Shown here: piece after piece, positions 20,688 to 26,748 of the stretch
How the letters are laid out: each line of letters begins with the position of its first letter
How positions within the stretch are numbered: the first letter of the stretch is position 1
NCBI RefSeq assembly: GCF_030013205.1
Contig: NZ_CP122648.1
Length of the DNA: 64,000 bases
Direction: 5' to 3' (one strand)
DNA from: Escherichia coli
GTDB lineage: Bacteria > Pseudomonadota > Gammaproteobacteria > Enterobacterales > Enterobacteriaceae
The notes under the pieces: generated by a model
Databases searched by the model: none
What the model saw: the letters and a program-made list of their open reading frames with translations, nothing else
What the model was told of the DNA's origin: nothing
Translations under genes and position numbers: made by a program

Positions 20688-20747
20688 CATAATCCCAATG
20701 ATTACTCCCTGACAGGGTTCGTAGGCCACTCAATATCAGGTGCAGTT

Positions 20748-20867
20748 GATGTATCAACACGGTTCAGCAACACCCGATACTTTTTCCAGGCTTCCAGCAA
20801 TGAGGTTTCTTCCTCCGTTGCGATTTCCAGATCCACAGCATCCTGAAGTGGCGCAATATGCTCACTG
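20748..20867. repeat. Direct repeat copy B (~120 bp)
   Basis: Hand alignment to 19699-19818. Confidence 0.8.
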
Positions 20868-21104
20868 GCTACCCTGGCGACGCGCCTTACGCGTTAACCA
20901 GCCTTCTGCTTCCAGCCGTGCGATAGCCGTTCTGACGGTACTCATCCCCGCGCCAATCTGGCGTGCAATGGTTTCAATTGATGGCCAGCACACACCTTCG
21001 TCATTACTGAAATCAGCCAGGCGGGCCATAATTGCCACGCTGGATAACTTCATGCCTGACGCAGCGCAACCATCCCATACATAGCCGGTTAATTTAGTGC
21101 TCAT
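20862..21104 (-). pseudogene. Phage HTH protein (replication-initiator-like N-terminus), truncated / frameshifted
   Basis: 80-aa ORF with HTH (SIETIARQIGAGMSTVRTAIARLE); the homologous continuation ([20 protein letters not shown]...) is in another frame immediately downstream. Confidence 0.5.
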
Positions 21105-22274: not shown

Positions 22275-22325
22275 ATCACATGATTAAAATGAACCTTCAA
22301 GATACTTGTACCTTAACGGTACAAG
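22258..22325. promoter_or_regulatory. Divergent cI/cro control region with palindromic operator-like sites
   Basis: Perfect palindrome cttgtacc-ttaac-ggtacaag (22305-22325) and tgtacc...gtaca (22258-22274) between the divergent repressor genes. Confidence 0.6.
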
Positions 22326-22340
22326 GGTTTTAATTTCGTT

Positions 22341-23015
22341 ATGAAAACAATCCATGACATCCGGCGGTCTAACGCCAGAAAACTGAGAGATGGTGTTGGC
22401 GGGAATTCTTCCTTTGCCACTATGATTGATCGCGAGCCAACCCAGACCAGCAGGTTTATGGGAGATGGTGCTACTAAAAATATCGGTGACAGCATGGCAC
22501 GACACATCGAAAAATGTTTCGACCTGCCTGTCGGATGGCTCGATCAAGAACACCAGACAACGAACATCACAAAAAAACCTGATGTTTCAATCACTAATAA
22601 ACAAATCACATTAGTCCCTGTCATATCATGGGTACAGGCCGGAGCATGGAAAGAAGTTGGATATTCTGAGGTTGATTTGAGCACAGCAGAAACGTATCCC
22701 TGCCCTGTACCCTGTGGGGAAATGACTTATATCCTGCGGGTGATAGGTGATTCAATGATTGATGAGTACCGCCCGGGAGACATGATTTTTGTCGATCCTG
22801 AAGTACCTGCCTGCCACGGTGACGACGTTATTGCATTGATGCACGATACAGGTGAAACCACCTTCAAAAGGTTGATAGAAGATGGGACACAGCGTTATCT
22901 CAAAGCGTTAAACCCAAACTGGCCTGAGCCTTACATTAAGATCAACGGTAATTGCTCTATAATTGGAACTGTGATTTTCTCAGGAAAACCAAGAAGATAC
23001 AAAATCAAAGCCTAA
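22341..23015 (+). CDS. CI-like phage repressor with LexA/S24 autopeptidase domain
   Basis: 224-aa ORF; N-terminal HTH region and C-terminal S24 domain (GDSM..., TFKRL). Confidence 0.8.
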   Translation: MKTIHDIRRSNARKLRDGVGGNSSFATMIDREPTQTSRFMGDGATKNIGDSMARHIEKCFDLPVGWLDQEHQTTNITKKPDVSITNKQITLVPVISWVQAGAWKEVGYSEVDLSTAETYPCPVPCGEMTYILRVIGDSMIDEYRPGDMIFVDPEVPACHGDDVIALMHDTGETTFKRLIEDGTQRYLKALNPNWPEPYIKINGNCSIIGTVIFSGKPRRYKIKA

Positions 23016-23054: not shown

Positions 23055-23082
23055 TTGACAATGTACCTTTGAGATACATAAT
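23055..23082 (+). promoter_or_regulatory. Candidate early-left (pL-like) sigma70 promoter overlapping tgtacc operator half-sites
   Basis: TTGACA (23055-23060), 16-bp spacer, CATAAT (23077-23082); two atgtacc motifs resembling the cI/cro operator half-sites. Confidence 0.5.
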
Positions 23083-23192
23083 GTACCCAAGAGAAACAAC
23101 AAACAGGCAGGACCCCCACGAAGTATCCGCCTGGGGCATATGAAGTTCAGGATGATTCGTTAGCAACAAAAAAGCGCCCTACAGGACGCTTA

Positions 23193-23204
23193 GCTCTTTA
23201 ACAA
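23193..23204 (+). promoter_or_regulatory. boxA-like element (GCTCTTTAACAA)
   Basis: 12-nt match to the rrn boxA consensus (TGCTCTTTAACAA) about 110 nt downstream of the candidate pL-like promoter. Confidence 0.35.
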
Positions 23205-23229
23205 TCTGGATATCCACAACAGTAGTAAT

Positions 23230-23721
23230 CTACAGATTGCCGTTAAGTTTTCTGGACAACTCCTCAATGGATGGAGGCGATACGTAATCCGGATTTTTAT
23301 TCATCAGAAACTTATTTTCACAGTGGAGGCACCTGCTTTTATGAAAAAGCTCATCTTCGCTAACCGGGAATGGTTGAAGTATCGATACTATCTTTTGTCC
23401 AAAACATTTTGGGCAAAGATGCATGGTTATGCTGCCACCGTTCACGATTACCTCCTTCGAGTATACAAAAGTACCCGACTCAAGTTGGTTAAGGATATAG
23501 CCTTCCGTCTGAGCCTCAAAGTTTTCGAATTCTGCAATTTTAGCTTTGAGAGAAGCATTTATTTCTTGATAAGAGCCCACCAGTTCAACGAGAGACACGC
23601 ATTCGCGCTGAATAGACGCAAGCTTTGAGTTCAGCTCACCAATAGCCGCATTTACTTCAGCTTGAGTTTTTGCCTCGTTCATTAGTTTTGCAATCTGGGC
23701 TGTTTCACGAATAGCCGTCAT
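23230..23721 (-). CDS. Hypothetical coiled-coil protein with C-terminal CxxC...HC zinc-ribbon-like motif
   Basis: ORF 23230-24009; the N-terminal 96 codons look like non-coding read-through, so the probable start is MTAIRETAQ (23721); C-terminus has CPKCFGQ...CLHCEN; oriented antisense to the predicted early-left transcript. Confidence 0.5.
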   Translation of the reverse strand: MTAIRETAQIAKLMNEAKTQAEVNAAIGELNSKLASIQRECVSLVELVGSYQEINASLKAKIAEFENFEAQTEGYILNQLESGTFVYSKEVIVNGGSITMHLCPKCFGQKIVSILQPFPVSEDELFHKSRCLHCENKFLMNKNPDYVSPPSIEELSRKLNGNL

Positions 23722-24030
23722 TGCTGCCGTTAATTCAGCGATCACATTGAATACTCTTATTGTTGTTGGGGATATCCAGATTAACCGAATCCTTGTTGTT
23801 GGGGAATAACCAGGTCCACCTCGCCTGATGTGGCTAAAAGCAGGCACATAACAGCTAAGTATTTTCAACCAGAGAGAATCCTTAGCGTTGTGGTGAATGC
23901 GGCTCAGCGCACGCGGGTTAAGGTTGAGGCTGACAGTCGACCTTCTGTGGATACCCACCCGCCTGGTGTGCAACCTTCGCCAGGCACCGGGAGGCACCCG
24001 GCACCACAACTTTATGCTGTGTGTAGTCCT

Positions 24031-24166
24031 GGCGGTACCAGCTTGTACCCTTGCTTCCGGCTGGTACCGTCCTTTTTACAAAACAGAGAAGAGCATCACC
24101 GGACGACGGGCTCATAACCCAATCCATCCGGGCGGCGGCCACCACAGGTGTTCTTCTCTGTTTTGT
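24031..24166 (+). other. Structured GC-rich non-coding segment: terminator-like hairpin plus U-run followed by a long imperfect hairpin (candidate regulatory RNA or leader)
   Basis: 12-bp stem 24031-24042/24060-24071 followed by ttttt (24073-24077); 16-bp stem 24078-24093/24151-24166 enclosing a GC-rich apical region; no credible ORF. Confidence 0.4.
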
Positions 24167-25467: not shown

Positions 25468-25594
25468 TTTCATTACTGCAAATGCCCCTGCGGGGGCATT
25501 TATGGAAACGTAATTAACTCAATAATCACCGGATGGTGAGGGCTTCCTTTTACCAGAATTCAGCGCGGTGCAGTGCATATACGTGGAGAACAAA

Positions 25595-26656
25595 ATGTCA
25601 TTTATTAAAACTTTTTCCGGGAAGCATTTTTATTATGACAAGATAAATAAAGACGACATCGATATTAACGATATCGCGGTTTCCCTTTCAAATATCTGTC
25701 GCTTTGCCGGTCATCTTTCGCACTTCTACAGCGTCGCCCAACATGCGGTTCTTTGCAGCCAGCTGGTGCCGCAGGAATTTGCTTTTGAAGCGTTAATGCA
25801 TGATGCAACAGAAGCGTATTGCCAGGACATTCCCGCACCACTGAAACGCCTTCTTCCTGACTATAAACGGATGGAAGAAAAAATAGACGCCGTAATCCGT
25901 GAGAAATACGGGTTATCAACTCAGACAAAGGCAAAGCATCTTGCCATGATAAAGGCCATTCTCCGTGCTGCAGAACGCGACTGGAAGTGGCTGGAAAAAG
26001 CGCCTGTCATCAAGATACCAGCGGTCAGAAACAAGCGAGTCAGATGGCTGGAAAAGGAGGAAGCAAAACGCCTTATTGATGAGTGCCCCGAACCACTGAA
26101 ATCTGTCGTCAAGTTTGCGCTGGCAACTGGTCTGAGAAAGTCGAACATCATAAATCTGGAATGGCAACAAATCGACATGCAGCGACGAGTTGCCTGGGTG
26201 AATCCAGAAGAGAGCAAATCAAACCGCGCCATTGGTGTGGCGCTGAACGATACCGCCTGTAAAGTGTTGCGTGATCAAATAGGCAAGCATCACAAATGGG
26301 TGTTTGTACATACCAAGGCGGCTAAGCGAGCAGATGGAACATCAACGCCTGCGGTCAGGAAGATGCGCATCGACAGCAAGACATCATGGCTATCAGCTTG
26401 TCGTCGTGCAGGAATTGAAGATTTCCGTTTCCATGACCTCAGACACACCTGGGCAAGCTGGCTGATCCAGTCAGGCGTCCCATTATCTGTGCTTCAGGAA
26501 ATGGGCGGATGGGAGTCCATAGAAATGGTTCGTAGGTATGCTCACCTTGCGCCTAATCATTTGACAGAGCATGCAAGGAAAATAGACGACATTTTTGGTG
26601 ATAATGTCCCAAATATGTCCCACTGTGGAATTATGGAGGATATAAAGAAGGCGTAA
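25595..26656 (+). CDS. Chimeric ORF: YfdR-like HD-domain N-terminus fused in frame to a tyrosine-integrase catalytic domain (likely inactive integrase remnant)
   Basis: N-terminal ~105 aa [14 protein letters not shown]...[10 protein letters not shown] (HD motif); C-terminal ~240 aa with integrase signature [11 protein letters not shown]...VRRYAHL, ending 16 nt from the tRNA 3' end; the integrase arm/core-binding N-terminus is absent. Confidence 0.7.
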
Positions 26657-26671
26657 CTGATTGAATTGTAA

Positions 26672-26748
26672 TGGCGCGCCCTGCAGGATTCGAACCTGCG
26701 GCCCACGACTTAGAAGGTCGTTGCTCTATCCAACTGAGCTAAGGGCGC
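26672..26748 (-). tRNA. argU: tRNA-Arg (anticodon UCU)
   Basis: 77-nt sequence whose reverse complement is GCGCCCTTAGCTCAGTTGGATAGAGCAACGACCTTCTAAGTCGTGGGCCGCAGGTTCGAATCCTGCAGGGCGCGCCA; cloverleaf and UCU anticodon readable by eye. Confidence 0.93.

Follow-up and report, generated by a model that had tools for sequence, protein, structure and literature searches.

Defences of the RexAB, SieB and BstA type are made from the repressed prophage, are encoded beside the repressor gene and protect the lysogen. Most of their genes run in the direction of the repressor gene or of the early operon instead of converging on it, and they have no sequence relation to the gene described here. A homologue of that gene is found in the lambdoid phage HK446, where rip1 (encoding gp37) lies antisense in the early-left operon. 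The structure of its product was released in February 2026 as PDB entry 9OOX, entitled 'Cryo-EM structure of the Escherichia phage HK446 Rip1 in complex with the Enterobacteria phage T6 small terminase'. A conference report (PMC12908700) describes a terminase ring of 11 subunits on which 12 Rip1 monomers form a cap, and a defence that works through a pore; a preprint (10.64898/2026.04.30.721860) lists Rip1 among the systems which sense the small terminase subunit.

Two further groups of homologues have been described under other names. HkaP of phages HK620, HK630 and HK629 is encoded antisense between cIII and hkaQ/N and was annotated by the depositors as a 'putative superinfection exclusion protein'; our literature search found no experimental function for hkaP, and the only paper found uses hkaP as an insertion site. 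The second is gp30 of Pseudomonas phage JBD30, with counterparts in DMS3 and D3112 (orf25), all Casadabanvirus, which also runs against the flow of its operon, although the host is different, the phage is Mu-like and the operon is a late one. At the site where Casadabanvirus relatives carry this homologue, JBD26 encodes Tab (tail assembly blocker), a minus-strand prophage defence moron with its own promoter, located between the terminase genes (PMC10884400, which also mentions BstA). Given the shared site, Tab was considered as an identity for our gene and rejected: it is an unrelated protein of 83 aa whose target is the tape-measure protein and which depends on an anti-Tab partner, whereas no partner gene is evident here. 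GiPD474 of Gifsy-1, for which an ATPase domain has been described, was set aside.

Here we analyse a stretch of 64,000 nucleotides of the Escherichia coli chromosome (assembly GCF_030013205.1, contig NZ_CP122648.1), referred to as the window, in which an earlier note, made from the sequence alone, had pointed to an antisense gene with repeats in its promoter. The gene encodes a new, previously unannotated member of an already known defence family. The promoter module, an antisense boxA and the use of the site for gene exchange may be the new parts.

An antisense gene beside a prophage repressor

The gene lies in a degraded prophage of the e14/CPS-53-like lambdoid type, located at argU. The features of the remnant and of the gene, numbered from the first letter of the window, are as follows.

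20.6-26.7 kb: degraded lambdoid prophage in the E. coli chromosome, next to tRNA-Arg, fimZ and the sfm genes
26675-26748: tRNA-Arg (argU), flanking the prophage remnant
23055-23082, plus strand: early-left promoter TTGACA-16-CATAAT (23055-23098 with the operator-like repeats), after the terminator of the repressor gene; 11 of 12 positions match the consensus
23060-23098 (plus strand) and 22305-22325: operator-like sites TGTACC...G(G/A)TACA, at the early-left promoter and in the repressor/cro promoter region
23230-23745, minus strand: rip1-like coding sequence of 171 aa with a GTG start and a TAG stop (RefSeq WP_000559922.1; PHROG 1244; profile match to PDB 9OOX)
23754-23758, minus strand: Shine-Dalgarno sequence AAGAG, 8 nt 5' of the GTG; (A/G)AGAG or GAG is kept in the aligned loci
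23320-23415, minus strand: predicted zinc-ribbon knuckles C111-x2-C114 (23404-23415) and C139-x2-C142 (23320-23331), from the sequence alignment

The immunity region of the remnant is of the e14 type, with ymfL and ymfT/cro on the minus strand and an intact ymfK repressor gene (22341-23015) on the plus strand; the rest consists of the rip1-like gene, yfdP and yfdQ and a truncated integrase. The early-left promoter carries two of the operator-like repeats, similar to the dyad TGTACC...GGTACA of the repressor/cro promoter region (22305-22325), and is convergent on the rip1-like gene, in agreement with the earlier note, which had placed the gene opposite to a predicted early-left transcript. YmfK, the repressor of this immunity type, probably binds at the TGTACC...G(G/A)TACA sites. 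The same DNA is found, identical, in many pig and human isolates, and also in the inducible ECOR13 phages PhiR49_1 and PhiR29, in which the prophage is complete.

Two observations concern the edges of the remnant. On the plus strand, 25568-26656 is a single long open reading frame in which the N-terminus of YfdR (an HD-domain protein) continues into C-terminal sequence of a phage integrase, evidently a deletion junction within the remnant; RefSeq annotates only the partial integrase. The other edge is marked by an Rfam match to IS009 (20745-20944, minus strand; 133.7 bits against a gathering score of 117), among partial fragments of tail-fibre-assembly genes.

The protein had been given as about 164 aa from an ATG at 23721 (163 aa as counted here). 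We place the start at the GTG at 23745, which is the RefSeq start and is favoured by codon-level comparison across loci: codons 1-8 show third-position variation between genera, Enterobacter has ATG at this position, codon 9 in Salmonella is ATA and not ATG, and the Shine-Dalgarno sequence lies at the appropriate place for it.

Membership of the Rip1 family

PHROG 1244, whose function is listed as unknown, matched the protein with an E value of 2.4e-58. HK446 Rip1, HK620 HkaP and JBD30 gp30 fall in the same PHROG, our protein and HK446 Rip1 both at E <= 1e-53. When the family profile was searched against PDB sequences it found chain L of 9OOX, labelled 'ring interacting pore 1 (Rip1)', at E 2.9e-17, and the alignment is close to full length (profile positions 6-152 against residues 16-160 of 9oox_L). 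Pairwise, the protein is 27% identical to HK446 Rip1 (E 4e-11), with both CxxC pairs aligned, 29% identical to HkaP and 30% identical to JBD30 gp30.

In the AlphaFold2 model (pLDDT 87.5) the N-terminal half is long and helical, whereas beta structure prevails in the C-terminal domain. Comparison of the model with the PDB by Foldseek gave 9oox_L and 9oox_M (probability 1.00; TM 0.52/0.71 normalised to the target, 0.71 normalised to chain M) as the sole matches below E 0.1. The N-terminal coiled coil which the earlier note had predicted corresponds to helices H2-24 and H28-79 of the model; its CxxC...HC motif has to be corrected to CxxC...CxxC. The four cysteines (C111, C114, C139 and C142), putative zinc ligands, are invariant in 24 relatives and in the HK620 and JBD30 homologues, and align with those of HK446 Rip1, which likewise combines a helical N-terminal half with a four-cysteine zinc ribbon in a protein of similar length (164 against 171 aa). 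By sequence and predicted fold, then, the gene product is an intact, full-length member of the Rip1 (ring interacting pore) family.

General annotation resources carry little trace of this assignment. Pfam gave only coiled-coil noise under the family cut-offs, NCBIfam gave no usable match for the protein, and no model of PADLOC-DB v2.0.0 (2023), a library which predates Rip1, matched it, the best hit being noise at E 0.059. All database relatives of the protein are labelled 'hypothetical', and all are from Enterobacterales. The wider family is large, with 3634 clusters at E <= 1e-3 in a profile search of 1.84 billion representative proteins.

The earlier note had taken the gene for an accessory factor of the exclusion or defence kind and had proposed remote homology and structure prediction as the check. 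Both led to a full-length Rip1 relative, and no homology to a phage structural or replication protein, which the note had named as the result that would refute it, was found; the accessory reading is supported by the homology to HK446 Rip1, a prophage defence protein, and by the antisense position of the gene in nine independent contexts.

Identity of 27% to one characterised member leaves room for divergence, and trigger specificity, even the effector mode, could differ. The protein might thus be a Rip1-family member which responds to another ring-shaped or phage protein, such as the portal, or which acts by non-lethal superinfection exclusion rather than through an abortive pore. Apart from the low identity, this would suit the shuffling of C-terminal domains among alleles (see below), the annotation of HK620 HkaP as a putative superinfection exclusion protein and the name itself, as 'ring interacting' leaves other rings possible. 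The sole solved complex, however, is with the small terminase, and the protein is conserved over its full length, zinc ribbon included, across the family; we therefore regard a different trigger or a non-lethal outcome as unlikely, and keep to a terminase-sensing Rip1 as the preferred reading.

Repeats, flanking modules and cassette exchange

The rip1-like gene is the central part of a cassette whose limits we defined by the extent of homology among the loci of the window, Salmonella, Citrobacter and Enterobacter, which lie in differing phage backbones. The cassette, present in 684 of 5426 complete E. coli genomes at a coverage of at least 80%, contains the following elements.

23165-23856, minus strand: complete moron cassette by homology limits, made up of the promoter module, the rip1-like gene and a 3' module that includes the terminator
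23823-23845, no strand: dyad GCCTG-N13-CAGGC, upstream of the promoter
23793-23805, minus strand: first direct repeat, DR1, whose 5' end TTCCCC (23801-23806) is at the -35 position, 17 bp from the -10
23778-23783, minus strand: candidate -10 TAATCT, between the repeats; found by relaxed positional scan, with a constant spacing to the start codon across all subfamilies
23760-23772, minus strand: second direct repeat, DR2 (TCCCCAACAACAA on the gene strand), covering the predicted transcript start (about 23771) and 5' UTR; placed relative to the conserved -10
23757-23782, no strand: upstream arm of a 26-nt inverted repeat, 85% complementary, which includes DR2 and the -10
23203-23228, no strand: downstream arm of the inverted repeat, directly 3' of the stop codon, a third and inverted copy of the repeat which the earlier note had missed
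23192-23204, plus strand: boxA-like sequence AGCTCTTTAACAA, where the early-left transcript enters the cassette, beside the inverted repeat copy
23165-23191, minus strand: intrinsic terminator of the cassette, an 8-bp stem and a T run, kept in the aligned loci

The two direct repeats are where the earlier note had put them, 33 bp apart from start to start (TTGTTGTTGGGGA at 23760-23772 and at 23793-23805); the note called them degenerate, whereas the two 13-bp copies are identical. In Markov simulations, 0.07 close exact direct repeats of a 13-mer were expected per window. The sole other one in the window belongs to a short tandem repeat at 1645-1672 with a 14-bp unit (ATGTGCAATGTGC...). The repeats of the cassette are kept in Salmonella, Citrobacter and many viral contigs.

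Their location in the promoter is upheld by a promoter scan across subfamilies, in which DR1 falls across the -35 position and the predicted start lies within DR2. The upstream module has the order dyad, DR1, -10-like hexamer, DR2 and Shine-Dalgarno sequence. A default sigma-70 scan found no minus-strand promoter and a relaxed positional scan was required; the candidate promoter, TTCCCC-N17-TAATCT, is weak, with 6 of 12 consensus matches. The hexamer at the -10 is TAATCT in the window, TATAAT in L075-L077, L095 and L097-L114 (locus numbers are those of our alignment) and TAAAAT in HK620 and HK446, and the sequence at the -35 position, 16-17 bp upstream of the -10, is TTCCCC, or TACCCC in HK620 and HK446. 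All enterobacterial cassettes, and HK620 and HK446 as well, keep the dyad almost unchanged, with one compensatory change in Enterobacter. Compared by eye with consensus sequences, the repeats did not fit sites for LexA, CII, sigma-32, sigma-54 or sigma-E.

HK446 rip1 has the same arrangement, an upstream dyad and two direct repeats 33-34 bp apart with the -10 between them, and the upstream module of hkaP is identical to that of HK446 rip1, the repeats being 34 bp apart in both HK620 and HK446. The repeat motif is different, however (TACCCCTACAG in HK446, TCCCCAACAACAA in the window), as it is in hkaP, which also belongs to another immunity type. HK446 rip1 furthermore overlaps the end of gene N and is without the 3' inverted copy, the boxA and the terminator module. 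Upstream of JBD30 gp30 no repeat module was found.

The flanks of the cassette are more conserved than the gene. Among the loci of the four genera the proteins are 56-60% identical and the coding DNA about 66%, against 86-94% for the 108-nt upstream module and 58-80% for the 62-nt downstream module. The inverted repeat is shared by Salmonella, Citrobacter and Enterobacter. Its 26-nt arms bracket the gene precisely, and e14-type prophages carry the Pin invertase, so that the gene could be imagined as an invertible, phase-variable segment which, once flipped, would be read in the same direction as the early operon. We rejected such a switch: a synthetic query for the flipped segment was found in 0 of 5426 complete E. 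coli genomes at a coverage of at least 80%, against 684 for the natural cassette, swapped flanks occurred in 0 of 92 loci, the arms, when read, lack a core of the Hin/Gin/Pin type, and some alleles have a decayed downstream arm with no compensating change, all of which makes inversion scarcely credible. Pairing of DR2 with the 3' inverted copy in RNA may occur but is unsupported, as L075, L089 and L012 decay without clear compensation, by eye.

The boxA-like sequence next to the downstream arm has an 11-nt core (GCTCTTTAACA) identical to the annotated nutL boxA of HK620. Read on the gene strand (TTGTTAAAGAGC), it is nearly invariant across variants, even where another hairpin replaces the terminator. 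By eye, no convincing short GC stem-loop that could serve as boxB follows it, and the annotation of this phage type shows no N gene. The boxA-like sequence would recruit Nus factors to the early transcript where it runs into the antisense stretch, about 650 nt that are not translated. Another possibility is that nut sites serve as places of recombination through which cassettes are exchanged; the presence of the cassette on either side of the immunity region would then be explained too.

Just beyond the upstream edge of the cassette, 23857-24080 (plus strand) resembles the gammaproteobacterial sRNA STnc100 of Rfam (E 8.5e-7; at 42.4 bits it misses the gathering score of 47), with a GC-rich hairpin and a T run at its end (24033-24069 onward). 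On the early-left transcript it would fall between the cassette and yfdP; RefSeq annotates a frameshifted hypothetical open reading frame there.

In every context examined (nine independent ones) the gene is antisense to the surrounding operon and has its own terminator and expression signals. In the window and in PhiR49_1 its neighbours are the repressor gene and yfdP, and in an e14-like prophage of Citrobacter they are the repressor gene and xis/int. The Enterobacter gene adjoins another repressor, and that of O157:H7 belongs to a racR-immunity prophage at potC; in HK446 it follows N, and in HK620 and HK630 it is between cIII and hkaQ/N. In Salmonella (L006, 4001-4516) the same cassette is on the rightward side, between cro and the next early-right gene. 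This position shows that the cassette moves between early-left and early-right operons, possibly by recombination at boxA/nut sequences. Altogether, at least four repressor types accompany the cassette, which can lie to the left or to the right of the immunity region.

Other E. coli strains that share this phage backbone have unrelated cargo genes next to the same promoter module. L094 (2500-3310) has the same promoter and 3' modules around an ECs1072-family protein (PHROG 5286) and a convergent partner of 68 aa (PHROG 1744), and in L095 (1900-2600) the promoter module is followed by a 27-aa open reading frame and then by the gene of a PHROG 6315 protein, which seems to have transmembrane helices. 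We regard both cargoes as candidate defence genes. The IUPAC-pattern search for the module recovered one sub-type, to the exclusion of the window's own variant, and is not a census of cargo.

These cargoes bear on whether the protein could be a zinc-ribbon regulator of the immunity region or of early transcription which binds nucleic acid, with the three repeat copies as its own operators. The gene adjoins the repressor gene, zinc ribbons often bind nucleic acids, and three copies of an element of about 22 nt with a palindromic core (TGGATATCCA) flank the gene. But the same module and repeats drive the unrelated ECs1072/PHROG 5286 and PHROG 6315 proteins and so are not specific to the Rip1-like protein, the cassette occurs with several repressor types on both sides of the immunity region, and fold and sequence match Rip1. 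We consider a regulatory role very improbable. Since unrelated cargo uses the same module, the repeats are part of a cargo-independent expression module and not operators of the Rip1-like protein.

Between its conserved flanks the coding region is hypervariable and mosaic. Among IMG/VR contigs (L097-L114), the same N-terminal helical half is joined either to a zinc-ribbon half of the 170-aa type or to one of a shorter, 151-aa type; in several of these loci the open reading frame is apparently disrupted. The mosaicism of the alleles fits recombination together with diversifying pressure on a sensor domain, and a hypervariable coding region and cargo swapped at one site are signs of selection typical of defence genes.

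Proposed mechanism and significance

We consider it likely that the gene encodes an anti-phage defence protein of the Rip1 family, carried by a self-contained moron in a degraded prophage, and that it acts along the following lines. YmfK would keep the early-left promoter off, while the weak cassette promoter would make the protein constitutively at a low level. When an infecting phage makes its small-terminase ring, the zinc-ribbon domain would bind this ring, which would template the assembly of Rip1 into an oligomer; its N-terminal helices would make a pore in the membrane. Death or depolarisation of the cell would follow before the release of progeny, leading to abortive infection. The prophage in the window is without morphogenetic genes, and self-targeting is therefore no issue. 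On induction of an intact prophage of this type, the early-left promoter would drive strong transcription against the gene and so silence it, and the boxA-like sequence would help the early transcript to cross the antisense RNA without Rho termination.

A broader reading of the flanks is possible but doubtful, and we offer it tentatively. The dyad, the -10 and the two repeats, with the inverted copy and the antisense boxA, may together constitute a portable, cargo-independent module with which lambdoid prophages carry interchangeable defence genes (Rip1 alleles, ECs1072-family genes, the gene of the PHROG 6315 membrane protein) in antisense within their early operons. The cargo would be on only under repression and would be turned off by convergent early transcription in lytic growth, while boxA would shield the early transcript from Rho on its way through the untranslated insert.

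The cassette is carried by about one in eight complete E. coli genomes, including O157:H7, where the protein is annotated merely as 'hypothetical protein'. Its assignment to the Rip1 family offers a testable function, a terminase-triggered abortive defence, which would bear on the outcomes of phage therapy and phage typing in pathogenic E. coli. An intact gene and an intact repressor in a heavily degraded prophage fit a defence gene that the host has domesticated. With its shared promoter module and its hypervariable, mosaic coding region, the locus marks a site of defence-gene exchange beside the lambdoid immunity region, and this site could be mined for further systems.
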